Shown here one piece after another: positions 7,382 through 26,620 of a stretch of 46,448 bases of DNA. Positions within the stretch are counted from its first letter, which is position 1. Every line of letters starts with the position of its first letter. Origin of the DNA: a virus (taxonomy: Duplodnaviria > Caudoviricetes); IMG/VR virus record IMGVR_UViG_3300010376_000054, positions 1 through 46,448 of that record; one strand, given 5' to 3'. The position numbers and the translations under genes are program-made. The notes below the pieces were generated by a model, which did not search any database, had not been told where the DNA came from, and saw nothing but the letters and a program-made list of their open reading frames with translations.

Positions 7382-8673
7382 TTTTCTAAGTACTCCTTGA
7401 TTATTTGTACGCTGTTTCTAATAGCGGATTTCTCGATCTCACCAGTTAACCTAGCGGATTCATACACATAACTATCTACGCTTCCATCTGTTTGCATCAG
7501 GTAGTAGTGGCATCCTTTGTGCGAACTGGATTTCCGTTCTGTCCTCCCCAAGGCTTGCTGTAATCCCCTTGCACTGAAGGGACAGGAATATATGATAGCA
7601 TACCGGCAATCTGCGAAATCGTTAAGTGAAGAACCAGACCCAACAGTCGCCACACAGACGTTATACTTTCCGGACTTCCACCCTTGACTATCAAATTCAT
7701 GCACACTAGATAGTGCTGTCGCTTTTTTTCCAATAGCATTAAGGAGAAGATCAACTGATCTCTGGAAAGCGCACCATATAACAATAGATTGTCCCGCATC
7801 ACACAACTCTGTGTATAGTTGTAATGTACGAGTGAGCTTAGATGATTGCACAAATGCAGGTAATCCTTCGCTATTAAGGATAAAGCCATCTGATATTTGC
7901 GACAGCTTTGTAATAAGTACCGCTGCATTCTTAACTTCAATTTCTCTATAGTAGTATTCATTCCTTAATTGTTCGAAAGCTTCTTCTTGTTCCCGGCTAG
8001 CATCTACTGTTACTCGTTGGAATTTCGATTGTTTATCTCCCTTTGGAAAATATATATCACAAACCTCTGCAAGTCTCGATTGTATAACTTGCAAACTTCC
8101 TTTCTTTGCGTAGTACTCAAATCCATACTCTTCAACTGCGAAGCAAAACTGTGACCGAAAGTCCGTAAGTGTTGCCGCAAGTCTTCGTCCAATCCCAACT
8201 GCTTTGCATTGCCCATATAAATCTTCAATGTTCCTAGCTGTAATTAAACTCCCCGATAGTCCTATTGTTGGATGATACTTAGTTAACTTCTCCGCGTTAG
8301 CAGAACGGATGGATTGTGGATTCTTGTATAACCATAACTCATCTAACACTATTAGTCCAATGTCGGTGCGTTGGGCTATCTTGTTGGCTAAGGCTAGTCC
8401 ACGATAACCACTCCCGGCACTTAACATACCGTAGGATAAAAACTCTACATAACAATCTTTCATCATTCCTAATGAATGCATCTCGTCCTGCCACTGACGA
8501 AAAGCTTGGGGAGAGCAGACTACCAGCAAAGTCTTCATCCCTTTGCTGCATAGCTTGCGCCAGATAGCTAGCGCAATCCGCGTCTTACCCTCCCCAACTT
8601 TCCACCAGACAACACCTCGCCCTTTGGCAAGTTTGTTAACTGCTTCTAGTTGTCTGTCGGTTAGCCAATTCAT
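7360..8673 (-). CDS. SNF2-like SF2 helicase
   Basis: GEGKT, IVLDEL, LSGS, DLYGQ, SSKL, VIWCAF, QALGRTER. Confidence 0.88.
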   Translation of the reverse strand: MNWLTDRQLEAVNKLAKGRGVVWWKVGEGKTRIALAIWRKLCSKGMKTLLVVCSPQAFRQWQDEMHSLGMMKDCYVEFLSYGMLSAGSGYRGLALANKIAQRTDIGLIVLDELWLYKNPQSIRSANAEKLTKYHPTIGLSGSLITARNIEDLYGQCKAVGIGRRLAATLTDFRSQFCFAVEEYGFEYYAKKGSLQVIQSRLAEVCDIYFPKGDKQSKFQRVTVDASREQEEAFEQLRNEYYYREIEVKNAAVLITKLSQISDGFILNSEGLPAFVQSSKLTRTLQLYTELCDAGQSIVIWCAFQRSVDLLLNAIGKKATALSSVHEFDSQGWKSGKYNVCVATVGSGSSLNDFADCRYAIIYSCPFSARGLQQALGRTERKSSSHKGCHYYLMQTDGSVDSYVYESARLTGEIEKSAIRNSVQIIKEYLEKCAQRKH

Positions 8674-9254
8674 TTAGCGTACATCGCTTCGCCATCTTTG
8701 AATTGTATAGCAGTTGTGTAATCCACTTTGCCACTTGTCTTGGCATCTTCATCCTGTGTCAGACAGTTCTTAGTAATCATGATCTCCGTTGGAGAAACCC
8801 ATCTACCAAGTGTAACTTTCTCTACCACTAACCCGATAGGAGTATGTGGATCTTCGCTTTGCTTATCATTAGTAATTTGATAGGTAGTATCAAACGGCAC
8901 ATTAACCCAACCATCATTTTTCAGTTCAGCACAGAATAACATTCCAGTTCTCCAAAGCTGATCTAACACAACTACATGCTTGGAATCTGGACTCCAGCTA
9001 ATAGTAATACTATCGCGAGATACGATGTTAGGATCGGAATCCCAACCGAATACAACGTTACCTTGTGCATCCAGTATCGTAAATCCTCTGACAGTCCATT
9101 TGCGATCAAAGGAAGCAGCTTCCGGCCAAGTACCAACGGTATCGGTAGGTTGAGGTTGTTTCATTTCTTGGTTATTCTGTTTCACATAACCCACAGGTGG
9201 ATTAGCGAATGCGCTACATGCTAGCGCAATTAATATTAGACTTGTTCTTTTCAT
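8670..9254 (-). CDS. Secreted protein with a Sec signal peptide; probable start MKRTSL at 9254
   Basis: MKRTSLILIALACSAFA signal; ISWSPDSKHVVV beta-propeller-like motif. Confidence 0.7.
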   Translation of the reverse strand: MKRTSLILIALACSAFANPPVGYVKQNNQEMKQPQPTDTVGTWPEAASFDRKWTVRGFTILDAQGNVVFGWDSDPNIVSRDSITISWSPDSKHVVVLDQLWRTGMLFCAELKNDGWVNVPFDTTYQITNDKQSEDPHTPIGLVVEKVTLGRWVSPTEIMITKNCLTQDEDAKTSGKVDYTTAIQFKDGEAMYAK

Positions 9255-9256
9255 AT

Positions 9257-9913
9257 TTATTTTCCAGCAGAGTGCGCCCAAAATCTAATGGTCACGGTTG
9301 GATTTCCAATAGTATAACCATAGATGTTGAAAGGCATTCCTAGTTGAGCGGCAGCAGCTTCACTGATCTCCCCGCTACCATTTGCAGGACCATTATCCAT
9401 TACTCTAGCCCAGATCGATACTCCGTTAATGTTATCGGTAACTAATGCCCAATCCCTTAAACCAACTCCAGCCGCAGCAGTATTACCATTTCTTACCACA
9501 AATGGATATAACGCTGCATCTACTCCGGTAGAGGTTCCCGGTTGCCATTTAGTATCCCATCCTCTCATGTTAGGATCACCGTCTGTATCTATCTTAGCAC
9601 GGGATACAACAATAATTGTTGCTGGTCCCAGCGGCACGCGAGGACCAACCAAACGAGGTGGAATTATAGCCATAAAACCATAGGTAGGTCGAGGTACACC
9701 TACAAAACCTCCGGCAAAACCTCCCCCTCCTTGTCTCAAACCCATAGCTGGATAGTAGACAGGAAAGCCCAAAAAGACCGGACTGTATCCTACTACAACG
9801 ATAGCAGGTAGGATTGTTGGTCCTCCCCCTCCATCATACATTACATAAGCAGAAGCACTGCTAACCATACTACCACACAACGCAGCAATATGTATTCCGT
9901 TTAACTTTTTCAT
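9257..9913 (-). CDS. GH75 chitosanase-like (double-psi beta-barrel) protein with a signal peptide
   Basis: IDTDG, DAALYPFVV, ARVMDNGP, GEISEAAAAQLG match GH75 motifs; N-terminal MKKL...ASA signal. Confidence 0.72.
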   Translation of the reverse strand: MKKLNGIHIAALCGSMVSSASAYVMYDGGGGPTILPAIVVVGYSPVFLGFPVYYPAMGLRQGGGGFAGGFVGVPRPTYGFMAIIPPRLVGPRVPLGPATIIVVSRAKIDTDGDPNMRGWDTKWQPGTSTGVDAALYPFVVRNGNTAAAGVGLRDWALVTDNINGVSIWARVMDNGPANGSGEISEAAAAQLGMPFNIYGYTIGNPTVTIRFWAHSAGK

Positions 9914-10906: not shown

Positions 10907-11674
10907 TTAGCTTAGTGTAGCTTTCGCTCCTGCAATTCTTTTAGGTTGAGCTAGTATATTTCTCGGAGCATTTAGACTGATCTGTCCAGCTTGTGTACCC
11001 GCTCCCGAGACTACTAACTGGTTTAAATCCAGGTTGCTCTTGTCAACCGTAATAGCTAATACATGTTGTCCAGTTGCTAACGCGAAGGTTCCCGGTATAA
11101 CAAATGATACCCACTCCCCGGGAGTATCCCAGTTAGCAGTAGTAGGTGGAACAGTGAAAGTAGAATACTGAGTACCATCAATCCCCAGATGTGCTTGTCC
11201 TCCGCCTCCGTCTGTACCACACCGCAATACAAAAGTAAAGTTTCCAGCAGTAACAACATTAACAGTAAACTCAATCCATGCTCCTGCAACTCCATATCCT
11301 ACTACCCAAGGGTTAGAACTAAATCCGGCTGCTGTATCTGTATTAGCTTTCAGTGTACCAAAGAAATCCGAACGGTAACCTGATGCTGCGGTAAAGCCGG
11401 GATTCTGTGGAAAGTTCCAGCTTACTCCCGGTCCCCCCAAATCGTAAGCAGAGCAGATAATATTAGCAGGAATGTTAGGAGGAGCACCACCGCTAAACGG
11501 ACCTTGGTATCCATAGTTAGCACTATTAGATGTTCCATTGCCTGTTACTACTGTTACTGCTACAGTACCTCCAGCATGGGCAGGAGCCTTTACCTGTAGC
11601 TGCGTACTGGAAACAACTGTTATGTTACCAGAAGCTACAGGAGTTGAACCAAAGAACACATTTTGTACAGGCAT
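10907..11674 (-). CDS. C-terminal half of an IPT/TIG domain, a CBM6-like module and a C-terminal strand tag (distal part of the GH10-like gene)
   Basis: VFFGSTP...VVSSTQLQVKAPAHAGGTVAVTVVT (IPT); YDLGGPGV...YRSD...VGYGVAGAWIEFTVNVVTAGNF (CBM6-like). Confidence 0.8.
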   Translation of the reverse strand: MPVQNVFFGSTPVASGNITVVSSTQLQVKAPAHAGGTVAVTVVTGNGTSNSANYGYQGPFSGGAPPNIPANIICSAYDLGGPGVSWNFPQNPGFTAASGYRSDFFGTLKANTDTAAGFSSNPWVVGYGVAGAWIEFTVNVVTAGNFTFVLRCGTDGGGGQAHLGIDGTQYSTFTVPPTTANWDTPGEWVSFVIPGTFALATGQHVLAITVDKSNLDLNQLVVSGAGTQAGQISLNAPRNILAQPKRIAGAKATLS

Positions 11675-11684
11675 AGTTTTAACA

Positions 11685-12848
11685 TCAGTTAAAGTTAGCA
11701 CCAACTATGTTAATAGTTTCACCTCCAGCTACCTTGCCTTGAGTTGGAGAGATAGATGAAATTGTTGGAGCAGGGGAACCACCTCCTCCACTAGCAGGAG
11801 CAAGAAAACTAGATTTATTAGCAACAAACCATGCAAAGAAAGGCTGCTGTTGATTAGGAGTAACACTATCGTTAATAGTACAACTGTCTCCATAGTTAGA
11901 TGAAATTCCACCAACGGCAGATGCTTTTAACCACCAAGGACCATTAATTCCAAATCCATTTGCCGCACCTTGGAAAATACTAATATAGCGTTGCCATGTT
12001 GCCAATACACTTTGAACCCCATTAAAAGCTACGGCTGCTCCACCTGAGTATGATCCACTGCTACTGGCAGGACTAAACTCAGTTAAGTGATATTCCGCGT
12101 TGGGACACAGTGAATGCCACGAATTTAAACCCGCTTGAACAGTAGCAGTAGGAGTTGAATCTAATTGATAACCTTCCTCCCCTATCCAATCTAAAAGTCC
12201 GGCGTTATAGAGAGCACTTCCTAAACTTTGAGATTGAGAAACTACATTATGATAACTGCCGGGAAAACCTACATTGCATAGCGTACCCCAATCATTAAAT
12301 CCTATCTTGAAGTTAGGACTAAGATTGTTCCTGGCAGTAGTATGTATCTGTACCATTGCAGAATTAATCTGAGCCTGAGAAGGACTAGTAGTTCTAGTTA
12401 TAGCATTAAGAAAAGGCCATTGACCTCCGGTAGCTCCAATGGATCGACTAAAAATTTCATTAACAGTATTAACATAAATTGTTACAGAGGCAGGAGTCCG
12501 AGCTTTCATAGCTTGACAAGCATTAGCCCATCCATTCAAAGCAGCAGACGCAGATAAACCTGTGTACCAATAATTTGCCGAAGGACCACCTATCCCATCC
12601 CAGTAAATCCGATGTGAGCCGTTAGGAATACCATTAGCCCAAGCAACATAAGCATCATAGTTAGTCCAGTTAAATGTATTATCACCCGTTTGTTCGTATA
12701 CGTTACAATCATCATATTCAGATGTTACTAGATTGTACGCTTGATTAGCTTGCCAACTACCTTGAGCCGTAGAAATTACTGCACTAGGTTTGGTTCCAAA
12801 CTGATTGTTACAAGTGAAACCTAACCATGCTATTTTACCATTTGTCAT
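11685..12848 (-). CDS. GH10-like (clan A TIM-barrel) glycoside hydrolase plus the N-terminal half of an IPT/TIG domain
   Basis: FNWTNYDAYVAWA, TVNE (acid/base), IGFNDW, DWIG, HLTEF (nucleophile); ends APTISSISPTQGKVAGGETINIVGANF. Confidence 0.75.
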   Translation of the reverse strand: MTNGKIAWLGFTCNNQFGTKPSAVISTAQGSWQANQAYNLVTSEYDDCNVYEQTGDNTFNWTNYDAYVAWANGIPNGSHRIYWDGIGGPSANYWYTGLSASAALNGWANACQAMKARTPASVTIYVNTVNEIFSRSIGATGGQWPFLNAITRTTSPSQAQINSAMVQIHTTARNNLSPNFKIGFNDWGTLCNVGFPGSYHNVVSQSQSLGSALYNAGLLDWIGEEGYQLDSTPTATVQAGLNSWHSLCPNAEYHLTEFSPASSSGSYSGGAAVAFNGVQSVLATWQRYISIFQGAANGFGINGPWWLKASAVGGISSNYGDSCTINDSVTPNQQQPFFAWFVANKSSFLAPASGGGGSPAPTISSISPTQGKVAGGETINIVGANFN

Positions 12849-15800
12849 AAGCCGGGAGATACCGTACTTTGTTTAGTTGTTACAGTAGAAGTTACTCCAC
12901 CAAAGAAGCTGGATATAGCATAAGCTGGATCAGTATCAAACCCACTTAATATATCAACCGCAAGTGGGACTGCCGAGTTACCACTAAAATTAACAGATGT
13001 TAAACTCTGGATTCCATCATTAGCTAAACAATTCACTTTAGCATTGACTGCTATCCTACTTCCTAACGTAGTATTCAATCCAGCTTGTGCCATGATCTTA
13101 TTAAATCCAGTGCCTCCCAAGGAAGCACGGGAAGCTATCGAAAGAGTCTCACCGATCTTATTCTTTTCCTGTGGTGTAGAACTAAGACTAGGCTGTAGTG
13201 TCGTGATACCTTTAACAATAACTCTCGCCGCTAATGTTAGACTAACTCCAGCTTGAACTCTAACAGTTGGTTGCCGTTGGATCGCGCCTCTAGTTAGAAT
13301 ACCAAGGATACCGTTCGGTACACAAGCACTGTAATGAATAACCTTAGCGCTTCCCACTAACTGCGATTGTGAAGTAAGATGGGCAGGGGATGGAGTAAAA
13401 GATCTGAATCCACTTCCTGTAAATTGTGCTAGCGTCTGAATTACAGTAGAAGTATCTCGCAACGCTCGACTAGTTTCTGTTGTCGCAAAACGAGCATTGA
13501 TAACACAACTGGTAAATCTAGCCGAACCAATTGATGCCGCCAAACCAGACCTAATACCTATCGAAACAATCCCATGTTGATTAGTACCAGTAATAACTAA
13601 GGTTGTAGTTGACCGAGCTTGAATGTTTACTATTGCTGATATGATACTATTAGCATTGGGTATAACAAATAATTGCGGGAAAACTGAAACGGCAGTTCGA
13701 TTTGCTACTCTTTGATTAGGAGTTAGGCTAACAAACCTGTTTAGTATAGCTACAGTAGTTAAACCCAACTTAAATGCACTTGCTGTTACAAATCCACGAA
13801 TCGCCAAACTACAAGGAGTAGTATAAGTAGCTGTTAATTTAACATTAGTTACCGTAGCTTTCCCTGCAAAACTGGATTGAAGTTGTTTTACAATTCTACC
13901 GGCAATAGTTAAAGAAATTCCTGAATTTATCGGAGTAATAGCAGGAGCAGTAGTTCGCAAACTGTTATTCAACACTCCTGATAATCCAGTTGCTATTACT
14001 GTCCTGACGCTCCATCTGACACTATCTGTAGGAACTACAATATGAAGCAGTCCAATACTACCAGCAGCTATTACAACACTAGCCGGAACAACATTAGCTG
14101 TTGCAAGTACCGTACCTTTGGTACTAATAGAAACAGTATTAGAAACAATCTTTACTGTTCCTGTTGCTTTTAATCTAACATAACTAACAACTGGACAAAC
14201 CGTGTGTCCATCCTGTTTTAACCCTGCGTCTATATTAGTTTTAGCAATTAAAAATCGACCGGCATTTGCTACCAATGTTATCTTGGATTGAATGTTTCCA
14301 AAAGCAGTTGGTATTCGTCCTGCATTGATATGACAGATAGACGATCTACTAATAAATGAAGCACTGATTAACAGGTTAGTGTTTGCCCGAATGTTACAAG
14401 CTGGAAATCCAGCTTTAATCTGGAAAGGAAATGGAACGATTTGAGTCCCTGAATTGATAGTCAGTGGAACTTGAGCATGATTAAAGGCATTAGCTAAAAT
14501 CGTTATAGCTCCACGCAAAGTAGTAATTGAGATTAATCCGGCGGAAATCCGAACCTGTCCAACCCACTTCATGATTGGTCGAGCAGTTAAGCTGGAACCA
14601 ACCATTATAATATCTTTGATAGTGGGAACTCTACCCGCATTAATAACAGTATTTAATCTCTTTAATACCGTTGAGTTAATGCTTCCAGTTAACCTAGACT
14701 GGACTGTTAACTGAGATTGAGCAGAAGCTTTAATACCATTGGCAACTAATGAGGCTTTTCCAAATATAGTGTCAGGAGTTCTAGTTAGCAGAGTACCAGA
14801 TGTAATAGATAATCGACCTATATTGTAAAGAATAAAAGCTTGAGGCAAATCTATAACTTTTGCATTAGCAACTATACCGATACTACTGGTAATATTACTT
14901 TGTGGAACACTAACATTTACCTTAGTTCCGTTAGCTATAACTGAAGCTATTCCAAATATGTGAACAACGTTGTTAGATTGATTCCTGCTATTAGCTGTTA
15001 TTGATCCTGTAACTCCTAGTATAGACAATACTCCACGCCACAAAACCATATCAGTTTCAACACTAGCAGAACGAGACGCAATTGAATCAATAGCATTATG
15101 TAAGACAGGAGCAGGAATATTAACTTGAGTTAAACTAGGAGTAAGAGTAATAGTCGCTTTATGAGTAACAACTGCGGTAACAGTTAGAGTAGCCCTAGTG
15201 TTTGTAATTGAAGTACTGGCATTAGCTTGGTTACGCGCAGTGAAAACTCCCGTTGCCCTACCCGATACTTGTTCAAAAGAAAATAACCATGCTATGGCTC
15301 TTATAGCATCAGATGTTATTCTATTAACTCTACTGGTAGCTGTAACAGACCTACCCGCACTAATACTAACCTGTAAAGGTTGAAAGTAAAATCCAGTTAC
15401 TAAAGCACTGGAAGCAGGAGCAATGTTGTCTTTAGCTGATAAGGCAAAATCAACTAGAAACAATATCCACTGGGAACTGCTATCAATAACAGGAGCATAA
15501 GCCTGAGAAGCAGTTGAAGAAAGGTAACGGTCTTCTAGGAGAAATCCTCTACCGGGATCAAAGATCCTATTTATAAAATTGTTTCCATAAGGTTGAAGCG
15601 CCGTGGTAGTCATTCCAACTGCTAATATATATCCACCTGCTTTTGCAGTTGTCAGAGTTACAGTTGGTGAAGTACTATTTCCCGAACCAGAGTTAGAAGA
15701 GTCTACTAAAGTAAATCCAGTTGGGCTACCGTTAATCTCCATCCAGTTAAAACTAGGAGAGTTTGGTGCGACTCCCCATGTAATAGTAAGAGTATTAGCA

Positions 15801-16726
15801 CCTACTGAACTATTTGCTATATTCGATCTAAAAAATAGAGCGCACCAGATACCATCGGACGCTCCTATTACCGAAGTTAAAGGTATTATTTGAGTATAAG
15901 CTCCATTGACCGAATCAGAAACTCCAGTCAAAGTTATGTTAGATGCGGTAGTGCTTTGATAACCTGTTACAGCACAGACTAAAGTATTACCGACACTTTG
16001 AAACTTTGCATTAACTCCGGTCGAGCCTCCTCCTACATGGGTAGCCTGTACTAAAACTGGACGAGTAGGAAAGGTAGTTGGTCCCTTAGCAATGGATATA
16101 GACGAAACCATCCAGTTATCATTAGTAGCCGATACTGTAGCACTATGAGTAGTAGAACTAGCACTAGTTTTAATAGTGTAGACACTAGCCTTTTTATTGG
16201 TACTGGATATACCACTACTAATACCTGTACCGGATACTGCTGTGCCTCCGGTAACAGAAGATACTCCACCACTACCTGTGGTAATAAAACTAATGATTAA
16301 GGCATTAGCCGATACATTAGTAACAGACTTGGTTGCTGAAGTAGAAGTCCCGGTCGATACACTACCAGCAACATCTGGGACACTCGGTCCTAACCAACCA
16401 GTATCGCTACTATATTCTTCAACGAAAACAGTATAAGTAGTTTGAGTAGTATAAAAGTTAACTGTTACTGTGTTAGTATTAGATCCCATTCCTTTGCAGC
16501 TAAGGCAAACAAAGATAACACATTCGCCTCCTGCCGCAGTACCATGACTGGTAAGAGGGGACCAGATACCATACTCATTCTGAGCAGTATCAGTTACCCA
16601 TACTTTATCATTCTGAGTTAAACCCCATACCTTCACAATAAGCAAATCACCTTCAGTCTGTCCCCAACCCAGAAGACCAGTTGAAGTATTCTCAAACGCT
16701 CTAGCATTGACAAATGCTATTGCCAT
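12845..16726 (-). CDS. Long fibre scaffold protein: two beta-sandwich domains followed by ~40 degenerate ~20-aa repeats
   Basis: Residues ~1-213 and ~222-428 resemble each other and ORF 16915..17649; the rest is periodic, e.g. NQHGIVSIGIRSGLAASIGS / ARFTSCVINARFATTETSRA / QRQPTVRVQAGVSLTLAARV. Confidence 0.75.
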   Translation of the reverse strand: MAIAFVNARAFENTSTGLLGWGQTEGDLLIVKVWGLTQNDKVWVTDTAQNEYGIWSPLTSHGTAAGGECVIFVCLSCKGMGSNTNTVTVNFYTTQTTYTVFVEEYSSDTGWLGPSVPDVAGSVSTGTSTSATKSVTNVSANALIISFITTGSGGVSSVTGGTAVSGTGISSGISSTNKKASVYTIKTSASSTTHSATVSATNDNWMVSSISIAKGPTTFPTRPVLVQATHVGGGSTGVNAKFQSVGNTLVCAVTGYQSTTASNITLTGVSDSVNGAYTQIIPLTSVIGASDGIWCALFFRSNIANSSVGANTLTITWGVAPNSPSFNWMEINGSPTGFTLVDSSNSGSGNSTSPTVTLTTAKAGGYILAVGMTTTALQPYGNNFINRIFDPGRGFLLEDRYLSSTASQAYAPVIDSSSQWILFLVDFALSAKDNIAPASSALVTGFYFQPLQVSISAGRSVTATSRVNRITSDAIRAIAWLFSFEQVSGRATGVFTARNQANASTSITNTRATLTVTAVVTHKATITLTPSLTQVNIPAPVLHNAIDSIASRSASVETDMVLWRGVLSILGVTGSITANSRNQSNNVVHIFGIASVIANGTKVNVSVPQSNITSSIGIVANAKVIDLPQAFILYNIGRLSITSGTLLTRTPDTIFGKASLVANGIKASAQSQLTVQSRLTGSINSTVLKRLNTVINAGRVPTIKDIIMVGSSLTARPIMKWVGQVRISAGLISITTLRGAITILANAFNHAQVPLTINSGTQIVPFPFQIKAGFPACNIRANTNLLISASFISRSSICHINAGRIPTAFGNIQSKITLVANAGRFLIAKTNIDAGLKQDGHTVCPVVSYVRLKATGTVKIVSNTVSISTKGTVLATANVVPASVVIAAGSIGLLHIVVPTDSVRWSVRTVIATGLSGVLNNSLRTTAPAITPINSGISLTIAGRIVKQLQSSFAGKATVTNVKLTATYTTPCSLAIRGFVTASAFKLGLTTVAILNRFVSLTPNQRVANRTAVSVFPQLFVIPNANSIISAIVNIQARSTTTLVITGTNQHGIVSIGIRSGLAASIGSARFTSCVINARFATTETSRALRDTSTVIQTLAQFTGSGFRSFTPSPAHLTSQSQLVGSAKVIHYSACVPNGILGILTRGAIQRQPTVRVQAGVSLTLAARVIVKGITTLQPSLSSTPQEKNKIGETLSIASRASLGGTGFNKIMAQAGLNTTLGSRIAVNAKVNCLANDGIQSLTSVNFSGNSAVPLAVDILSGFDTDPAYAISSFFGGVTSTVTTKQSTVSPGL

Positions 16727-16918
16727 TTAATGTTTGCCTATTAAACCCGCAGTGATCTTGACACTGGCAATAGTTCGCCCTAATCCAATCTTAATAGCGA
16801 CCTGTCCCAGAATTGGATTATGAGTTGGAGCTACAACATCAGGATCTCCTAATCCAGCTTTAATATAGACTGCTATGCGATTAGGGATGTTAGAGATATT
16901 TGGATTTGCAACGATCAT
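16727..16918 (-). CDS. Small protein made of fibre-type strand repeats (63 aa)
   Basis: ATGA overlap upstream and abuts the next ATG; IAVYIKAGL, GQVAIKIGL and ASVKITAGL resemble the scaffold repeats. Confidence 0.6.
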   Translation of the reverse strand: MIVANPNISNIPNRIAVYIKAGLGDPDVVAPTHNPILGQVAIKIGLGRTIASVKITAGLIGKH

Positions 16919-17649
16919 ATAGTTACACGTCCCGCCATTAAACCTTTAGCTGTTAATGTAGCCGCACTTCTACCTCCTACTGACTCAGTTCCACGTCGAT
17001 TAATCCTACTACTAGCAGTAACAGCAGAATGAGGAGCTAAAGCATCAAATCCAACTTGATTTATTCCGGCTATCTTATATGCGGCTGCTCCTAAAGACCA
17101 ATTCAATGTAGCAGTACCATTTACAGTATATGTTCCCGCACTTCCTACAGTTTCATATTCTGTTATACTTCCCCATGTTGTAACGTACCCAGTAAACCCT
17201 GCTCCTGCTACCGTACCCTCTCCAATCACAGCTATGATTAAATCACTAGGATAAATAGTAGTAATACTTGCAGTAGGATTAGTTCCTGCTACTCCACTAG
17301 CAGTAGTCGTAGCATCTAAAGGACTACTTGTAACAAGACCACTAAAGTCATAACATATCATTTCTGTATTACTACTAGTACCGGGAAGAGTATAAGTAAT
17401 AGTAGTAGATCCAGCAGGAGCATTAGATAAGCGTGCTATGGTTATGAAACCAAAAGGAGAGTTGAACGAAAGATCAGTAATAAGATTTGTTGCTCCAGCT
17501 TGAATCGAAGTTGGAACAGCATTAGATATCAGTAAACCAATTATAGTATCTCCTGCTACAACTGGATTAGTAAAAGTACCTGACTTTGTAGTTCCTGCTG
17601 TTCCAAACTGACCAAAATTCAAGACTGCTTGCTGTAAGACTACTGCCAT
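16915..17649 (-). CDS. Beta-sandwich fibre protein with 2.5 C-terminal strand repeats
   Basis: VVAGDTII...STTITYT...YDFSG...PLD...SITT...DLIIA parallels the domains of the 1293-aa protein. Confidence 0.7.
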   Translation of the reverse strand: MAVVLQQAVLNFGQFGTAGTTKSGTFTNPVVAGDTIIGLLISNAVPTSIQAGATNLITDLSFNSPFGFITIARLSNAPAGSTTITYTLPGTSSNTEMICYDFSGLVTSSPLDATTTASGVAGTNPTASITTIYPSDLIIAVIGEGTVAGAGFTGYVTTWGSITEYETVGSAGTYTVNGTATLNWSLGAAAYKIAGINQVGFDALAPHSAVTASSRINRRGTESVGGRSAATLTAKGLMAGRVTI

Positions 17650-17653
17650 AATA

Positions 17654-19132
17654 TTATCCTAGTTTAGCTATTGCGCCTCTAGCTACTCGTCCGGTATTAG
17701 TTAGAGTTCGTCCTGCTCCTATCGCATCAGTACCAAATTGGTTAGGAGCAGCTTGTAATAGTAAAACCCAATCAGGATCTCCTCCACTATTATTACCGGG
17801 AGTAGTAAAGTTATGAGTACTGGTATTCAGAAATGGAGATCCAGTTATACTCTGAAAAGTATTATTAGTTGGATCATACCATCGAGCAGTAATAGAAGCT
17901 AACATTTTGGTCAGATCAACTGTAATAGTAGAAGCTTGTGGACAAAAAATAAGTCCAAGTTTTTTATCAGCAGTTAATCCTCCAGTAACATAATTGTTAC
18001 TCATTGTCCCCGCACAGTTAGCAGCCGCAGTCAAAGTCGAACTGTTATAATCTAAATAGGTTCCACGTCCTGCGGTAATAAACGTGCTGCTTTGATCAGG
18101 TATTAAATTAATCCAATCTATTGCTGTTAAGAAAGCATTCAAGTAACCAAATTGGATTGCTCCTGTTGTGTTTAAATGATTTTGCCACGGCCAAGTACTA
18201 GCATTGTTAGCAGAGTTAAATATGTTCTGGTTTCCATATAACTCACCACAACCTCCCGCTGTTATACACCACCAGATCTGTGCTCGAATATTTTTAGGAG
18301 TTCCGGCATCAAACAATCCTGCCGAAATTTCCTCATATATAGTTTCACCTACATGCGCGGGTTTAGGAGAAGCAAGATTATAGGCTTTTAAAGTATCAGC
18401 ATACGATGGAAAATAAGTATACTCATGGTTCAACTGCATATAAGGATAAATGGTAGTATCATCACTAGCCAGATTTATTCTAGCAACTTGAAAACCATCA
18501 TCCATTTCAGAAGTATGTATATGAACAGTATCGTTACTTTGAATACCGGAGATGATCTGAACCATTAAGTTATCATCTCCCGGTTGCTGTTGGTTACCAG
18601 CATTTATGTAGCTGTAATCATCAAAGTGATAGTAAATTATATTAGCAGTCTTGTATCTGTTACCTATAAATTTACCGTAGTTATTACACTTGGTTAATCC
18701 ACAGTTGCGATAAATTCCTAACATGCTCTGCGGTGGATTAGCTGCAAGTAATGCTGTTGTCTTACCGTTCTCAGTACAGTTAAACAAAACTACTAATCCA
18801 TAGCTGTTAGCTAAACTAATTGCTGCATCTACCTCTGCCCAGTAGTTAGCATTAGGAGTGGATATATCCCCAGCAGTAGTAAATGGAACCTGACCATCGT
18901 AAGACTGAAAATTATTATATCCAGCTACATATACTCCTCCCGGCGCACAAAACATTACCGCAGTAAAACCTTGTGTGGCTCTAGTAGAAAAGTAGGTAGC
19001 TTGCTGAGTTGGATTCAAGTAAGCTAACATTCCCCAACCAGCGTCACAGAGTAAAGGCCAAGGAGTACCGTTCTGATCACAAAGAGTACGACCATTAGCA
19101 GCTACCTTAATTGGAAAGACGTATGCCATCAA
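17654..19132 (-). CDS. DUF4038/GH140 (apiosidase)-like glycoside hydrolase with the family's usual C-terminal beta domain and a strand tag
   Basis: NGRTLCDQNGTPWPLLCDAGW, RATQGF, YWAEVD, GETIYE, IRAQIWW...YGN, ARWYDPT, DWVLLL. Confidence 0.85.
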   Translation of the reverse strand: MMAYVFPIKVAANGRTLCDQNGTPWPLLCDAGWGMLAYLNPTQQATYFSTRATQGFTAVMFCAPGGVYVAGYNNFQSYDGQVPFTTAGDISTPNANYWAEVDAAISLANSYGLVVLFNCTENGKTTALLAANPPQSMLGIYRNCGLTKCNNYGKFIGNRYKTANIIYYHFDDYSYINAGNQQQPGDDNLMVQIISGIQSNDTVHIHTSEMDDGFQVARINLASDDTTIYPYMQLNHEYTYFPSYADTLKAYNLASPKPAHVGETIYEEISAGLFDAGTPKNIRAQIWWCITAGGCGELYGNQNIFNSANNASTWPWQNHLNTTGAIQFGYLNAFLTAIDWINLIPDQSSTFITAGRGTYLDYNSSTLTAAANCAGTMSNNYVTGGLTADKKLGLIFCPQASTITVDLTKMLASITARWYDPTNNTFQSITGSPFLNTSTHNFTTPGNNSGGDPDWVLLLQAAPNQFGTDAIGAGRTLTNTGRVARGAIAKLG

Positions 19133-19398
19133 ACAATTCCAGCAGACTTCTTAGCTTCACAAATAACAAACTTCATTCCATACTTAAACATCTGTTGTGG
19201 AGTTACAGGATCATTACCGGACTTACCTTCAGCTTGATAAATCCTACCTAGAAAAATCTTACCTCTAGCTATCCAATCGGGAAATACCGATAACAACTCT
19301 TCATCGCTGGGAATAGGAGGTTCTGCTCCTACTCCCATAATGTTAATATTAGCGTTCTTTAAATCCACCTCAATCTTACAACTAGCTTCGTGTATCAT
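19129..19398 (-). CDS. Hypothetical protein (89 aa) in the fibre module
   Basis: AGGA/GGAG upstream; overlaps the start of the next gene. Confidence 0.65.
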   Translation of the reverse strand: MIHEASCKIEVDLKNANINIMGVGAEPPIPSDEELLSVFPDWIARGKIFLGRIYQAEGKSGNDPVTPQQMFKYGMKFVICEAKKSAGIV

Positions 19399-19466
19399 AG
19401 TTAATCCTACTCCGTTTAACTCAAGTTAAAAAGCTTGCGCGAACTTTCTTTAGATGAGTATTAGAA

Positions 19467-19871
19467 TTAGCTTTGAGTGATCGTGAGGTTAGTTGCAGTG
19501 AACTGGAACACATCACCACTCGAAAGAGTCTTGGATGCTGCCAGATCTCCAAAGAACAGCAAGTTACTGTTACCATGCTCGAAGATAGCCAAGGTAACCG
19601 CGACAGTCCATGCTCCTCCAGCAGCCGCAAACGACAACGTTGTGGAGTTGTTAATGCTGTTAGTAGCTGTCGTACCAAAGTTAGTTGTGTTGCATGTTAC
19701 CTGCAACCTCGCATAACCAGTACCACTAACTTCTGTTCCCGCACCACCAGCAGTAATACCACCAGTAGTGTACAACGCTAAATCAATGCTCGAAACAAAG
19801 GTGTATGCCGTAGCATTGAACAATTGGTTAAGCAGCTTTGCTGCTAGATATGTACCTGTACCAGATGCCAT
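19467..19871 (-). CDS. Conserved ~130-aa phage fibre subunit (bead/collar-type structural protein)
   Basis: LALYT...GTEVSGTGYAR...N...F...W...NLLFFGDL..SKTL.SGD.FQF....L is a widespread phage virion protein pattern. Confidence 0.8.
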   Translation of the reverse strand: MASGTGTYLAAKLLNQLFNATAYTFVSSIDLALYTTGGITAGGAGTEVSGTGYARLQVTCNTTNFGTTATNSINNSTTLSFAAAGGAWTVAVTLAIFEHGNSNLLFFGDLAASKTLSSGDVFQFTATNLTITQS

Positions 19872-19891
19872 ATATTCTCTCGACTCCTATC

Positions 19892-20005
19892 TTAGAAATT
19901 GGGACTGAGATAATCCTCAATCCAATCCTTCCCAACATTCTTTTCGGAAACTACTCCTACCGTTGCGGCAGGAGTGATCGTACAAGTTGCTGGTTGATTA
20001 GCCAT
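19892..20005 (-). CDS. Small protein (37 aa) carrying one strand repeat, not in the ORF track
   Basis: Hand translation MANQPATCTITPAATVGVVSEKNVGKDWIEDYLSPNF; starts 1 nt after the upstream stop (TGA T ATG). Confidence 0.5.
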   Translation of the reverse strand: MANQPATCTITPAATVGVVSEKNVGKDWIEDYLSPNF

Positions 20006-20006
20006 A

Positions 20007-20480
20007 TCAATTAACGATGGTTAATGTCCATCTGCTTATGTTCTCGGGATTCCCTAAGTTGTTAATAAAGTCAACATAGAGAAACATTGTAGTGCCAACT
20101 GCTAGGTTAGAGTAGTCAGCAATACGAGTGAAAACGTCTATCAATCCGGCACTGGGAGGAGACTCGATAATAATGTCTGCCGGATTGTTTGTTAAAGTTT
20201 TAAAGAAAACGTAGGTAGTATCCGTAGGTCGCAGCTTGGCATAGAAGTTAACTTCTGTTACTCCCGACAAGTTAAATGGTTGTCCATTAGCCTGAACTGC
20301 GGTAATCAAAGATTCGATATCATGGCCAACTATGACTGTTTCATTGGTCAAGCCTAGCCCTTCCGGTGGAACCATTTGAGGAGTTATACCTAACGTATTA
20401 AGAATGATGGTTAGTCCCGGTTCATTCCATTCCACCAAGTTCTGATTCCCGACATTATCAGTATAGGCAAACATGTCCAT
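20007..20480 (-). CDS. BppU-like Ig-fold virion protein
   Basis: GHD...NGQPFNLSGVT..FYAK......VFFKT...GLIDV....DY..L pattern. Confidence 0.65.
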   Translation of the reverse strand: MDMFAYTDNVGNQNLVEWNEPGLTIILNTLGITPQMVPPEGLGLTNETVIVGHDIESLITAVQANGQPFNLSGVTEVNFYAKLRPTDTTYVFFKTLTNNPADIIIESPPSAGLIDVFTRIADYSNLAVGTTMFLYVDFINNLGNPENISRWTLTIVN

Positions 20481-20481
20481 A

Positions 20482-20961
20482 TCAAGTTACCAGTAGAGGT
20501 GCAACCATCTGTCCTACAGTGTTACCAACCAAAGCTACCACTCCGGTACACAAAGAGTTAGTCATATTGTCGCCAGTAGTAACTGTCATTTCGAAAGTGC
20601 CGTTCTGTGGATTTATATTTTGGGTATCCTCCGGTTTTAGATACCAAAGCAAAATTCCTTGGGTAGGATCTCCCAAGTTCGTAATCGGGTTGTAGGCTAC
20701 AATAGATTGCCTGTCGGCAAACAGGATCTCGAATGCAAACCACCAAGTTGTTATATTGGTTGGATTCCATGCTTTGTGTGCAGGAGTTACGATAGTAGGA
20801 TACATCCCGCTCTCTGCTGTTACTACAGGATCATAATAAGGTGAGGGTATAATAGATAGAGGAGTGCAAGCTATACTACCAAATCGGATATAAAATCGTT
20901 TAGCGCGACCTTTTACTATCCTGATAAACAAGTTATGTGGATCTACAATCAATTTGCCCAT
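20482..20961 (-). CDS. BppU-like Ig-fold virion protein
   Basis: IRIVKG...DPTQGILLWYLKPEDT...FEMTVT...TG pattern. Confidence 0.6.
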   Translation of the reverse strand: MGKLIVDPHNLFIRIVKGRAKRFYIRFGSIACTPLSIIPSPYYDPVVTAESGMYPTIVTPAHKAWNPTNITTWWFAFEILFADRQSIVAYNPITNLGDPTQGILLWYLKPEDTQNINPQNGTFEMTVTTGDNMTNSLCTGVVALVGNTVGQMVAPLLVT

Positions 20962-22727
20962 CCATTTCCAGTTAACACTCCCGGCGTAAAGTTAAAGATT
21001 CTGGTTCCAGTTACATTACCCAATCCATCTATGTTACTCAGATTAAACATTCCTATATCATAGGTAACATTACTCTGAGCAAGAAAACCATTAGTAGTTC
21101 CCATCAAGAGATAAGATTTAAGATCAAGCCCTAATCCATAACTACTGTTCCAGACGCACCAGAGAAAAGCATAGTATGCTGCGGGAGGTGAACCTGGATA
21201 ATTCCCTGTTACTACTAACTGAGAATTACCACCACAATTTATTCCCTGATTACCGTTTCCAGCTACAAAAACCCATTTAGTTCCTACTTCTAATGGAGCA
21301 AGATATGCCATTCCACCAAAAGCTATCCATATACCAAACTGCAAGTTATTAGTAAAGCCCAAAGCTGCGCCTGTTGCTTGTCCAGTTGATATTGTTATTC
21401 CATTGTTATTATTAGAAGCGGTACAGTTATATATCTCTACGTTTGTATTGTTAGCGATATAGAAACCACCATTCAATAAAAGATTAGAATTAAGAAATCC
21501 ACTTACTCCACATCTAACTAATCCATTACAGAGTCCATAAAACAAAATACCTACAGGAGCATTATTACCTGTAGGAGCAGCTTGTGGTACAAGTCCTATG
21601 TTCTGGATTGTATTAATCCCATGTGATCCTACAACAATTCCGAATTGATTTTGAGTAGGTTGCAGGAGTGTACTAATAGGTGTAAATACTCCTCCAGTAC
21701 TTCCAGCTAAACTTGGAAAAGATGCTTGTCGGAAAGGTACACGAACAGTAACAGTAGATCCTGAGATTGCTGTTACTTGATAAAACCCTGCCATTATAGC
21801 ACTGGAAAAATTAGACGATCCTGCTATAAAATACATATTAAGCCATCGTCCAACAACAATGTTAACTGTACTACTACATCCGGTTAACTGTACACTCCAG
21901 TTCCCATTTGAACCTGTAACTGAACCAAATCCTGTAAAATTTACATCAGGAAGACTTTGCCCTAACAGATTAATTTGTGTACCATTAACATGATTTATAT
22001 TAGCCATTCCCGGAGCACCAGCATAAGTATCCCCACTAACATTAATGTTAATAGTGACTCCCGGTGCTAACGTATATTGATTCAGATAATTCACCGCATT
22101 CTGAATCGAAGAAAAGTTAGGAGCAACGTTAGGATTTCCCGGCTTAACAAATAATGTAGTAGATTGTGTCAGCATCGGAGTACTGACAATCCACTCTGTT
22201 ACTCTGCCTAATGCATCAACCGGAGCAGTTACTACAATACCGGGACCAGCAACTACCGGAGGAACAAAGACAGGATTCCCAGCTTGTACGGTTATACTGA
22301 CACTCGTTCCAGTTCCTACCACTACTGGAACAGTGACATTAACTTGTAACCTACCCGCACCAGAACCGGGATTAATAGTATCATAGGGTGAGGTAGCCTG
22401 ACAGTAACAGAACAACTGTTCTGATCCTGCGCCTACTTTAGCAAACACTCCTAACTCAGTTAAACTAAACGGAGAAACTACATTAGCTGAATCCAAGGTT
22501 GCATTAACCTCAAATTCTCCCGGTTGCAGATCATTAGCCGCAGTACTAGGAGGTTGTGGAATCAGGTTCATTACCTGAGTAACCAACGCAGTCTGGGCTG
22601 CTGGATTACCTGTAGCAATTCCACTACCCACAGCAACACGAGTAATGACTAACGGTTGCGAAGTTGAAGTAGCAGCTATCTGGGCTGCTCCCAATGCTGT
22701 AATAGTATTAGTAACAAAGTTAGGCAT
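20949..22727 (-). CDS. Tail fibre/spike: P2 gpH-type N-terminal anchor plus a beta-helix receptor-binding region
   Basis: ITALGA...LVITRVAVGSG...TELGVFA...LFCY; FSSIQNAV...INVSGDTY followed by N/G-rich beta-helix rungs. Confidence 0.85.
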   Translation of the reverse strand: MPNFVTNTITALGAAQIAATSTSQPLVITRVAVGSGIATGNPAAQTALVTQVMNLIPQPPSTAANDLQPGEFEVNATLDSANVVSPFSLTELGVFAKVGAGSEQLFCYCQATSPYDTINPGSGAGRLQVNVTVPVVVGTGTSVSITVQAGNPVFVPPVVAGPGIVVTAPVDALGRVTEWIVSTPMLTQSTTLFVKPGNPNVAPNFSSIQNAVNYLNQYTLAPGVTININVSGDTYAGAPGMANINHVNGTQINLLGQSLPDVNFTGFGSVTGSNGNWSVQLTGCSSTVNIVVGRWLNMYFIAGSSNFSSAIMAGFYQVTAISGSTVTVRVPFRQASFPSLAGSTGGVFTPISTLLQPTQNQFGIVVGSHGINTIQNIGLVPQAAPTGNNAPVGILFYGLCNGLVRCGVSGFLNSNLLLNGGFYIANNTNVEIYNCTASNNNNGITISTGQATGAALGFTNNLQFGIWIAFGGMAYLAPLEVGTKWVFVAGNGNQGINCGGNSQLVVTGNYPGSPPAAYYAFLWCVWNSSYGLGLDLKSYLLMGTTNGFLAQSNVTYDIGMFNLSNIDGLGNVTGTRIFNFTPGVLTGNGWAN

Positions 22728-22728
22728 A

Positions 22729-23541
22729 TTACCCGTGTCCTGCCTTGATTAAAACTAGGATTGCACGCAAGAGTCTTTCCGTAGCAGTTATAGTAATGCG
22801 TGCCGCGATAGTTCCTACCATCGCACCAGAAAATAATTGCCGAGCGGTAGCTGTTAAAGCTGCTCCAATCTGAATAACTTCAATCAATGAGGAAGTTTGT
22901 ACATTAGCATTAGCAACCATGCTGCTATGCAAAGCAACAAACTCCGCATTCAAGTTAATACTACCTAGCGGAGTCCACAACCATTCCTGTACATAGCAAC
23001 CGGGAACTAGAGAAAAACTCGTTGGTGCAGTAGTTACAAGGTAGAAACCCTCCATTGTCTGGGATGCTCGTTTAATCGTGAGCATCGTCGTAACAATGTT
23101 AGCTTGTACATCGGAAGGTAAAACGACCGGAGTTAGTATCCTGAAGTGATCATGCGTCCCTCCATACTGATACCACTCCTGCAAAAACAAACCTCCATAG
23201 ATAGTATTAAGTAACTGTACCATCAACGATACTGTTCCTAATCTTCGATTAAAGTTAAAAGAATTTTGAATCAGTTGAAGTTTTAAAGCTAACCTAGCAA
23301 CTGGATCACTGATCGTATTAGCTTGAGCATAGAACAAAACACCAAACTGGAATGCCATCAAATCCAGTACGTTCTCCGGTTGGGCAGCCAGATTCGATAA
23401 TACCTGAACTTGAGCTACAATAGGCAATAAGGCAACATGCTCTATATCACTAACATCACCAATGGATATGATGTTAGGATCGAAGTTAATTGAAGGAGGC
23501 AACAGATCGTTGAACTTACTGGATAGGAGATCAACACTCAT
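22729..23541 (-). CDS. Baseplate protein gpI-like, with a C-terminal strand-repeat extension
   Basis: DLLPPSI, LDLMAFQF, RRLGT, EWYQYGG..HFRI, KRAS. Confidence 0.88.
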   Translation of the reverse strand: MSVDLLSSKFNDLLPPSINFDPNIISIGDVSDIEHVALLPIVAQVQVLSNLAAQPENVLDLMAFQFGVLFYAQANTISDPVARLALKLQLIQNSFNFNRRLGTVSLMVQLLNTIYGGLFLQEWYQYGGTHDHFRILTPVVLPSDVQANIVTTMLTIKRASQTMEGFYLVTTAPTSFSLVPGCYVQEWLWTPLGSINLNAEFVALHSSMVANANVQTSSLIEVIQIGAALTATARQLFSGAMVGTIAARITITATERLLRAILVLIKAGHG

Positions 23542-26619: not shown

Positions 26620-26620
26620 A

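Follow-up and report, generated by a model that had tools for sequence, protein, structure and literature searches.

The stretch analysed here, which we call the window, comprises 46,448 nucleotides from an uncultured, contractile-tailed phage of, in our reading, soil origin. A check against the ORF list places all ORFs of the cluster where the first-pass annotation had them, all on the minus strand (Table 1). A motif of about 21 residues is common to a 1293-aa protein, a baseplate wedge protein, a predicted glycan-cutting enzyme and a likely glycan-binding protein. Because the same motif occurs on several proteins, the phage likely hangs several glycan-handling proteins on its tail through one shared clip.

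Table 1. Features of the cluster and the evidence for their assignment (positions in the window).
Feature	Position	Strand	Evidence or proposed role
134-aa bead protein, Gp80 family (GP4 fibre I)	19467..19871	-	Predicted homodimer clamping rope strands; Pfam, fold
P2 gpI-like baseplate wedge (BW3) with C-terminal rope extension	22729..23541	-	Pfam Tail_P2_I, repeat profile; likely virion anchor
1293-aa cargo-plus-rope protein	12845..16726	-	Two beta-sandwich heads, then ~21-aa repeats
Middle of rope, five I-x-A-G units	14222..14644	-	Possible kinks or branch sites
244-aa beta-sandwich, likely glycan-binding accessory domain, C-terminal tag	16915..17649	-	Tag statistics, homologue P0245
Apiosidase-like (DUF4038/GH140-related) enzyme, 492 aa, C-terminal tag	17654..19132	-	Pfam, PDB match, tag statistics
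GH10-like TIM barrel and first 26 aa of IPT	11685..12848	-	ESM Atlas, motifs, TIG match
Rest of IPT, CBM35 and degenerate tag, 265 aa	10907..11704	-	Pfam TIG, CBM_35_2; +1 frame relative to GH10 ORF
63-aa ORF with I-x-A-G units	16727..16918	-	Possible linker peptide or remnant
37-aa ORF directly upstream of bead gene	19892..20005	-	One repeat-like stretch and conserved C-terminal motif
89-aa conserved protein between bead gene and first cargo gene	19129..19398	-	Clade conservation
Two Ig-like proteins (157, 159 aa), BppU_N/LtfC-like	20007..20961	-	Atlas; candidate collar or adaptor

The 134-aa protein is a bead of the GP4 gp80 family. It matches Pfam PF23140 (Gp80) at E 3e-23, with 83 bits against a curated cut-off of 27, and its sequence matches GP4 gp80 in PDB entry 8JOU at E 1.8e-6. 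The AF2 model (pLDDT 93.9) has the N-terminal helix and incomplete beta-sandwich of the GP4 gp80 fold; Foldseek returns 8JOU at TM 0.81, followed by the connector chains of Bas63 and Sf14, and VIA aligns 128 residues with GP4 gp80 at Z 15.0 and rmsd 2.1. Likeness to a 176-aa chain of the phage 812 baseplate entry (Z 4.4) and to A511 gp105 (Foldseek TM 0.34) is distant. In the accessible parts of their descriptions, the solved relatives from GP4, Bas63 and A1002 are dimers strung along a rope, to which they bind by beta-sheet augmentation (PMC12609058, PMC13730344), and by analogy the present bead is predicted to be a homodimer.

The family is widespread: 314 of 50,697 phage records match one of its members, and we estimate several thousand stretches in viral contigs. 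A tblastn search of the phage collection with the present bead gave no match at E 1e-3. Bead proteins 87-90% identical to it sit on contigs of ~60 kb, and the close-relative loci that we compared are short, ending at or before the cargo genes. Of 223 loci, a redundant set, 160 have a rope ORF close to the bead gene; among shuffled ORFs, 1 of 3112 passes as a rope. A scan for loci with more than one rope passed nine of the 223, among which inspection by eye left a single one (L196) with two true ropes.

In the window, a rope of extended repeats of ~20 residues lies close to the bead gene, as in a rope-and-bead fibre. This rope occupies aa 430-1265 of the 1293-aa protein (nt 12932-15439). A motif learned from that region alone gives leave-one-out sums of 121-190 in five runs, compared with a mean of 77 (SD 12, maximum 119) in 300 shuffles, so the repeat that had been noticed by inspection is real. 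The accompanying figure of about 40 holds for the number of 21-aa slots (836/21) but not for recognisable units, of which 31 were picked and 26 score positive when held out. A plain autocorrelation gives a weak signal (z 2.5-3.0 at lags 20, 21 and 34). The protein had also been taken for a bare scaffold; it is cargo plus rope, with two copies of the 244-aa domain. A profile of 57 homologues of that domain recognises both of its beta-sandwich heads, at about nt 16082-16726 and 15443-16069, with E 1.4e-12 and 1.1e-16. Among 8000 scored candidates, the only homologue of the long rope is itself, and a PDB sequence search with it gave no match. We also built a profile from distant ropes; its first version drifted to A/G/T/S composition and was discarded, and the second recognises only 8 units in the long rope and no tag. 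The kinship of the present repeats therefore rests, as far as the ropes of the family are concerned, on pattern, spacing and gene context.

Shorter forms of the repeat end two neighbouring proteins. The tag of the 492-aa protein (1.5 repeats, nt 17657-17743) starts exactly where the enzyme domain ends, and that of the 244-aa protein spans 2.5 repeats (nt 16918-17061). The scaffold profile gives P/T/A-rich linkers of other apiosidase homologues scores of 9-17, against 10.3 for the real tag; linkers thus score as high as a tag, and therefore only composition-matched shuffles are informative. With the scaffold-only profile and shuffled tails, P is 0.006-0.007 for the 492-aa tag and 0.004-0.013 for the 244-aa tag. 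In a C-terminus-anchored test they rank second (0/300 shuffles) and third (7/300) among 58 ORFs, and each ranks first of 13,247 windows when held out from a set of first repeats that is small and was chosen after inspection. All tags find their best match in the first repeat of the long rope. Comparison of the tails with one another puts this pair third among 1653 pairs (other tag pairs rank 75-896), and single tails against the rope score modestly (7/300 and 13/300 shuffles; 61/300 for the 265-aa tail). These sequence statistics establish the tags of the apiosidase-like enzyme and of the 244-aa protein as genuine.

The 492-aa protein is predicted to be an apiosidase-like (DUF4038/GH140) enzyme with conserved acidic residues. 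It matches PF13204 at E 1.7e-41, PF12904, and PDB 8T9W at E 1e-19, and keeps 69 of 83 conserved columns, including D172, E263 and E267; the conserved Asp and Glu we take to be the catalytic pair. Since 14 of the 83 columns are lost, several of them aromatic, the substrate may differ. The 244-aa beta-sandwich is likely a glycan-binding accessory domain. A signal-peptide-like N-terminus was sought by eye on the enzymes and not seen, and their genes lie within the structural gene run.

No tag of this kind was seen by eye at the enzyme end in 99 other matches of the apiosidase-like enzyme, and only one of 149 homologues of the 244-aa domain has one, by a chain test that missed the window's own copy. 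A chain scan of 150 matches of the 244-aa protein passed 18 (3 among shuffles), of which 17 are by eye Ig-like or linker sequence and one, P0245, carries a tag. P0245 lies on another contig and has the same domain and tag; at 33% identity over the matched stretch, it keeps the 2.5-repeat length, register and ending, which points to selection. Two longer, multi-domain proteins (P0206 and P0210) combine the 244-aa domain with an apiosidase-like region, as read by eye. In 139 distant loci (2957 ends), only one additional rope-tailed ORF is credible. The first cargo position of two relatives holds an unrelated protein (306 aa in L006, incomplete in L005) with no clear tag (P 0.016). Our literature search, which fell short of most subscription journals, brought up no enzyme described as bearing rope repeats as a tag.

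The third tagged product of the first-pass annotation, a single GH10/IPT/CBM6-like protein, is in fact two ORFs split by a +1 frame break, and its CBM belongs to CBM35. The ORF with GH10 and the start of the IPT domain ends at a stop with no tag in that frame, and the rest of the IPT domain, CBM35 and tag continue in the +1 frame, where the 265-aa ORF matches Pfam CBM_35_2 (E 1.6e-7) and TIG. Residues 1-352 of the first ORF form a GH10-like TIM barrel (ESM Atlas feature score 0.96, TM 0.73 to GH10 clusters) with V-N-E at 129 and T-E-F at 256, presumably the N-E and T-E glutamate motifs of GH10; Pfam GH10 does not match at E 0.01. Modelled fold and both motifs agree with GH10, making this a putative glycosidase. 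The tag itself, 1.5 degenerate repeats at nt 10910-10996, is weak and separated from GH10 by the break: P is 0.36-0.61 with the scaffold profile, and it ranks sixth of 58 in the anchored test (38/300 shuffles) and ninth of 13,247 when held out (P 0.017). The break agrees in one contig from a possible source run, and the listed pieces of two other runs do not span it. For GH10 to join the fibre, ribosomes would have to shift +1 at the break; failing that, the gene is decaying.

A scan of all ORFs with the scaffold profile thus sustains two of the three proposed tags, which beat shuffles, but not the third, and it brings up a site that had been overlooked. The top-scoring window outside the rope in the genome, by the scaffold-only profile, is the C-terminus of the wedge, which also ranks first of 58 in the C-terminus-anchored test. 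The wedge (Pfam Tail_P2_I, E 5e-7) carries three repeats and a half at aa 196-270 (nt 22732-22956). The extension is present in all five clade proteins, counting the window (the others being L001, L007, L238 and L241); it is clear in three (P <0.001 in the window, L007 and L241), marginal in one (0.016, L238) and weak in one (0.098, L001). In five distant wedges it was not detected (P 0.13-0.75). Among 34 proteins scanned, those of L202 and L207 join the rope to a Mu gp48-like wedge, and others join it to heads of the LamG (4), CBM96 (1) and lactonase (1) types. A gpI/BW3-type wedge with a string beyond its usual C-terminus is the arrangement of the A511 and 812 arms, and the wedge is likely the virion anchor of the bead chains.

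Among the smaller ORFs, the 63-aa ORF had been read as mostly main repeat. It does not fit the main profile (P about 0.5); its two I-x-A-G units are of the mid-rope kind (P 0.0004, for a motif defined after looking). The 37-aa ORF, read in the same way, does contain one stretch resembling the repeat (P 0.001-0.003); what its relatives (L001, L005, L006 and L007) conserve, however, is a C-terminal D-W-I-E-x-Y-L-x-P motif. The 89-aa protein, with no Pfam or PHROG match, is 41-53% identical in four of four clade loci.

Taken together, we propose, with a probability of about one half, that the phage builds bead chains anchored on the wedge and splices tagged glycan-handling heads onto them; both binding and display on the virion are predictions. 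The 134-aa protein, like its solved relatives, would form dimers with incomplete beta-sandwiches. Each repeat would be extended and complete their sheets, with about one dimer per repeat. Binding by strand complementation, as first suggested, is the mechanism of the solved family members, but the suggested single subunit per repeat gives way to a dimer as more likely, since A1002, in the accessible text, has 11 dimers on a dock of ~270 residues. With its 3.5 repeats, each wedge would then have room for about three dimers, a short arm like that of A511. In the least certain step, the terminal dimer may hold the last wedge strand on one side and the last cargo strand on the other, so that two polypeptides would be spliced tail to tail; we propose this because the wedge and the short-tagged cargo proteins end in partial repeats. 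The tethers of the cargo heads would be 1.5, 2.5 or about 40 repeats long, which for the longest means roughly 110 nm if packing is A1002-like. The beta-sandwich and CBM heads could bind capsule or biofilm polysaccharide of a soil host, and the apiosidase-like enzyme could trim it. Splicing faces two difficulties: four or five cargo types would compete for the few ends that six wedges provide, and joining tail to tail would also permit free cargo-cargo pairs.

In the cellulosome, different glycan enzymes share one docking tag (cohesin-dockerin). The first-pass annotation had drawn on this picture, which survives here as a functional analogy only: a Pfam search of the cluster's ORFs at E 0.01 found neither cohesin nor dockerin, and the tag is no more than a strand, whose receptor would be a separate bead dimer. 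Docking along the long rope is possible but less economical than splicing at the wedge. A branched display of this kind, with the long rope as scaffold and internal I-x-A-G half-units each recruiting a bead dimer with a free edge for a cargo tag, so that one long fibre would bear several enzymes, is a doubtful alternative. Five I-x-A-G units lie at aa 695-832 of the rope with spacings of 32, 43, 30 and 32 residues (shuffle mean 0.08), the autocorrelation peaks at lag 34 (z 3.0), units of similar form stand at the ends of the wedge and of the 244-aa protein, with two more in the 63-aa ORF, and the 812 arm scaffold, in its accessible description, has docking loops between bead-bound linkers (PMC13433997). 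However, this motif is a post hoc one of which the other ORFs hold 8 copies in 12,714 aa, the search of 8000 candidates yielded no homologous rope in which conservation could be checked, the units could be kinks or fold-back sites, and the accessible published descriptions contain no solved branch of this type.

A second alternative, which we consider unlikely, keeps the wedge rope as a separate short arm and gives the Ig-like 157/159-aa proteins the part of a collar or adaptor that holds both the long rope and the tagged cargo, in the style of GP4 and Bas63. As far as the accessible sources describe them, the GP4 rope interlocks with an Ig-like collar and the Bas63 rope is an N-terminal extension of the collar. 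Both proteins have an Ig-like fold (Atlas), and the 159-aa family directly follows the rope gene in six distant loci. Yet neither carries a repeat, their genes come after the baseplate and fibre genes and not among the neck genes, and the match of the 159-aa model to T5, DT57C and Bas63 tail or connector chains is a lead only, at pLDDT 48.7.

It is improbable that the tags are mere remnants of glycan-enzyme genes inserted into or duplicated from the rope gene, with the short-tagged proteins off the virion and acting, if at all, in the lysate. Duplication would predict the shared best match to the first rope repeat, and the broken GH10 gene with its degenerate tag and the debris-like 63-aa ORF fit such a history; the tag kept in P0245, the conserved columns of the apiosidase and the matching partial repeats at the tag ends argue against it. 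A neck fibre of the A-1(L) type, the analogy first drawn for this locus, in which trimeric beads polymerise by themselves under a terminal carbohydrate-binding cap, can be set aside as highly improbable: the A-1(L) bead chain does end in a carbohydrate-binding module, but its model is a chain of trimeric beads at ~14:1:1, and its description includes no rope protein (PMC10966104), whereas the present bead belongs to a family solved as rope-bound dimers.

If wedge-anchored chains with spliced heads are indeed what the locus encodes, phages could add host-recognition and capsule-cutting functions by appending 30-50 residues, with no need for a trimeric fibre; a role would be suggested for a widespread bead family, some phage glycoside hydrolases would belong on the virion and not among metabolic genes, and a small peptide-dimer clip would become usable for protein display. 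A tentative extension would make this a plug-in system, in which one bead dimer splices any protein with a 30-50-residue end strand onto wedge-anchored fibres, rope half-units act as branch points, a +1 frameshift rations the GH10 head, and each virion bears a mixed, exchangeable array of glycosidase and glycan-binding heads from soil bacteria. The solved bead-on-rope fibres, in the accessible parts of their publications, have one rope and no separate cargo, and their binding target is still conjecture. New here is the wedge C-terminus as the best repeat match and likely anchor, with precedent in A511 and phage 812.

The present locus can be compared with several known fibres, each of which we describe from the accessible part of its source. 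The collar-whisker of Bas63 and Sf14 likewise belongs to a myophage, and its rope runs through grooves of whisker dimers and completes their incomplete sandwiches, but it sits on a neck collar with two dimers and no cargo is described there (PMC12609058). In A1002, the nozzle-rope gp39 is fused to a core tail protein and binds gp40/gp41 dimers by beta-sheet augmentation, 11 of them along a rope of ~300 Å (PMC13730344), or roughly 20-25 residues per dimer by our own division. A1002 has one rope and two bead types, as against one bead and four to five rope-bearing proteins here, and no enzyme cargo is described in that text (PMC13730344). The available part of a preprint on a mycobacteriophage baseplate mentions no rope (PMC13252515).

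The arms of A511 (gp104/gp105) and 812 share the anchor: the gpI-equivalent wedge is drawn out into a string, which takes up three dimers in A511 and six in 812, and it ties receptor-binding proteins to the baseplate (PMC10811340, PMC13433997). According to the same partial sources, A511 BW3 crosses three gp105 dimers, His-tags can act as string in crystals (PMC10811340), and the 812 arm scaffold fills gaps between neighbouring dimers (PMC13433997). Their beads are only distantly similar to the present one (Z about 4), and the 812 receptor-binding proteins are trimers bound to docking loops or close to arm segments rather than heads that bring their own rope tag (PMC13433997). GP4 fibre I (8JOU) has the same bead family and fold and a separately encoded rope; in what is accessible of its description (PMC13730344, PMC12609058), it belongs to a podophage of Ralstonia, and its single rope carries five dimers and is fastened by an Ig-like adaptor. 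The present myophage instead combines a ~40-slot rope that bears two heads with a second rope on the wedge and with short tags on further proteins.

The window is a single 46.4-kb contig whose minus strand carries all long ORFs, and the sequencing runs containing its sequence are labelled soil metagenome. Because it encodes a P2/Mu-like sheath, tube and baseplate, alongside a lambda-like terminase, portal and capsid, we assign it to a contractile-tailed phage. The bead and rope cluster closes the tail gene run, downstream of the P2 gpI-like (BW3) baseplate protein (the wedge), a conventional tail fibre and two Ig-like genes. The baseplate hub, which is GPD-like (phrog_52), is split over two ORFs of 303 and 125 aa; in the related locus L001, a separate ORF of 120 aa occupies a similar position. 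Among other members of the clade, L001, L007 and L238 carry one to three additional fibre-like genes, collagen-like in L001, between the fibre and the Ig-like genes; these are absent from the window, and the accessory fibre set differs among relatives. A 226-aa protein adjoining the terminase genes is, by eye, what we take to be glycosyltransferase-like, and two ORFs of 203 and 218 aa, with N-termini signal-peptide-like by eye, adjoin an AAA ATPase.

Coordinates of the bead and rope genes and of features observed beside them
Feature	Source	Coordinates	Strand
Bead protein, 134 aa	Window	19467-19871	minus
Long rope protein, 1293 aa	Window	12845-16726	minus
Apiosidase-like enzyme, 492 aa	Window	17654-19132	minus
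Beta-sandwich protein, 244 aa	Window	16915-17649	minus
IPT/CBM35 product, 265 aa	Window	10907-11704	minus
GH10-like ORF	Window	11685-12848	minus
Frame change (+1), vicinity	Window	11685-11704	
63-aa ORF	Window	16727-16918	minus
Pre-bead ORF, 37 aa	Window	19892-20005	minus
Pre-bead ORF	L001	9877-9999	
Pre-bead ORF	L005	600-839	
Pre-bead ORF	L006	1762-2007	
Pre-bead ORF	L007	9694-9999	
Conserved protein after bead gene	Window	19129-19398	
Wedge	Window	22729-23541	minus
Tail fibre	Window	20949-22727	
Split hub	Window	26242-27532	
226-aa protein	Window	44340-45020	
ORFs of 203 and 218 aa	Window	8670-9913	
Bead with two rope proteins	L196	10504-12500	
Interrupted rope	L153	10412-11959	
Interrupted rope	L154	1689-3200	
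Rope-wedge fusion	L202	10401-11288	
Rope-wedge fusion	L207	10399-11172	

The 134-aa protein is a member of the Pfam Gp80 family (83 bits, cut-off 27) and matches PDB 8JOU in sequence. Its model (pLDDT 93.9) is closest to GP4 gp80 (TM 0.81, Z 15.0), followed by the connector chains of Bas63 and Sf14; weaker matches are to a chain of 139 aa in the 7-7-1 tail-fibre entry (Z 5.0) and to one of 176 aa from the 812 baseplate (Z 4.4). Two published reports describe solved bead relatives as dimers on a rope (PMC12609058, PMC13730344). More specifically, the Bas63 rope passes along grooves and completes sandwiches that are otherwise incomplete (PMC12609058), and the A1002 dock, ~270 residues and ~300 Å long, carries 11 dimers with augmented sheets (PMC13730344). 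The strand complementation proposed in the first-pass annotation is therefore a known mechanism. Directly after the bead gene, 5/5 clade loci encode a conserved protein of 78-89 aa that falls in no known family and is a candidate chaperone or clamp.

The repeat of the 1293-aa protein is genuine: a motif learned from residues 430-1265 only gave sums of 121-190 against a shuffle maximum of 119, beating all 300 shuffles. Since 26 of the 31 units, spaced mainly by 18-23 residues or multiples thereof, were retained, the ~40 repeats first reported are slots and not counted units. Residues 1-430 contain the domain of the 244-aa protein twice, so this presumed scaffold, as its short neighbour does, joins heads to a tether. 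Packed as in A1002, the long tether would span ~110 nm by arithmetic; fully extended, at 3.3 Å per residue, it would reach ~280 nm at most. A rope ORF lies beside the bead gene in 160 of 223 fetched loci, many of them close kin, versus 1 of 3112 shuffled ORFs. In these loci a single rope commonly carries a fused head; more than 120 residues precede the repeats in 29 of the 160, and among 34 proteins scanned Pfam matches are to LamG (4), Mu gp48 wedge (2), CBM96, lactonase and SU10 adaptor (1 each). The clade's own repeat is divergent, as a profile built from these distant ropes recovers only 8 units in the window's long rope and none of the tags. A Methylobacter MAG (L196) encodes a bead, two separate rope proteins with 5 and 11 repeats, respectively, and a protein of 99 aa, Ig-like by eye; in Luteolibacter (L153, L154) an inserted domain interrupts a rope that is joined to a head-tail adaptor, with an SU10 adaptor match for L153.

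The wedge, overlooked in the first-pass annotation, is the likely anchor: the top windows in the genome for a rope-only profile lie in it, at residues 219 and 241, with a third at 198 and a half-unit after. This extension is shared with four relatives (P <0.001 for L007 and L241, 0.016 for L238, 0.098 for L001) and not detected in five distant wedges (P 0.13-0.75). By published accounts, an extended BW3 chain of A511 crosses three bead dimers, and His-tags are able to substitute for it in crystals (PMC10811340); likewise a BW3-like arm scaffold fills gaps between adjacent dimers in 812 (PMC13433997). The His-tag replacement points to a low sequence demand, which fits the degenerate repeats and would make short tags, by analogy, plausible binders of the bead. 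In Paenibacillus (L202, L207) a Mu gp48-like wedge has a rope fused at its N-terminal end, which puts the rope on the same putative anchor from the opposite side.

Of the three tagged proteins first proposed, two bear real tags. Scored with the rope-only profile, the tails of the 492-aa protein, which has an apiosidase-like enzyme fold, and of the 244-aa protein score above shuffles of matched composition (P 0.006 and 0.004-0.013) and rank 2 and 3 among 58 C-termini. Searching 1.84 billion representatives for homologues of the 244-aa protein yielded 163 matches; among the 150 listed, P0245, on a 2.6-kb contig, has a 244-type domain and then a 2.5-repeat tail that aligns to the window's tags without gaps. 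With the first repeat after each head held out, in a set selected after inspection, the rope, 244-aa, 492-aa and P0245 units each rank 1 of 13,247 windows. We rely on shuffles and held-out ranks only, because P/T/A linkers of other apiosidase matches score as high with the rope profile as the real tag does; among 99 such matches, 38 have a short end after the domain, 11 no matched end motif, and the remainder linkers or other modules by eye. By eye, the 244-aa homologues P0206 and P0210 join that domain and an apiosidase-like region in one chain. The window's heads resemble modules of such multi-domain metagenome proteins, which suggests that the cargo handles host or biofilm polysaccharide.

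The third tag, ascribed to a GH10/IPT/CBM6-like product, is weak: the first-repeat unit of the 265-aa product ranks 9 of 13,247 held out (P 0.017). A +1 frame change within the IPT domain also separates the GH10 fold from CBM35 and the tag. The change recurs in a contig of a possible source run of the window DNA; the listed pieces of two other runs do not reach it. No ribosome-binding site was seen close to the downstream ORF, and the break is either a programmed frameshift or a single-base insertion. The 63-aa ORF, once read as repeat, fails the main profile, and its 37-aa counterpart has one unit and otherwise a different conserved motif. The small ORFs that immediately precede the bead gene range from 37 to 101 aa, and what they have in common is limited to the motif D-[WF]-[IL]-E-x-Y-L-x-P at the C-terminus; their products could be a second docking peptide.

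We put the probability that bead dimers bind the long rope at about 0.9. They probably also bind the two good tags, and we lean towards display of the tagged proteins on the virion. Both the wedge and the short-tagged proteins have C-terminal repeats ending in a partial unit; for this reason we favour tail-to-tail splicing, in which the two would meet on a shared terminal bead dimer. Tagged cargo might instead branch from five I-x-A-G units, which do lie in the middle of the rope; the boldest reading, a branched plug-in array of enzymes, is unlikely. The other main rival to splicing on the wedge places the anchor in the Ig-like proteins.

The bead, the rope and the wedge string are each already known, and A511 BW3 and the 812 arm scaffold are precedents for the wedge extension. 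What we take to be new is that short rope tags sit on several separately encoded proteins, one an intact-looking glycosidase: no such case was found in the literature searched, and such proteins are rare in distant loci (one credible case in 139 loci and 2957 ends). Cyanophage A-1(L), the model first invoked, is the wrong parallel, as its beads are modelled as trimers (~14:1:1) and its description mentions no rope (PMC10966104), whereas the window's bead belongs to a family solved as rope-bound dimers.
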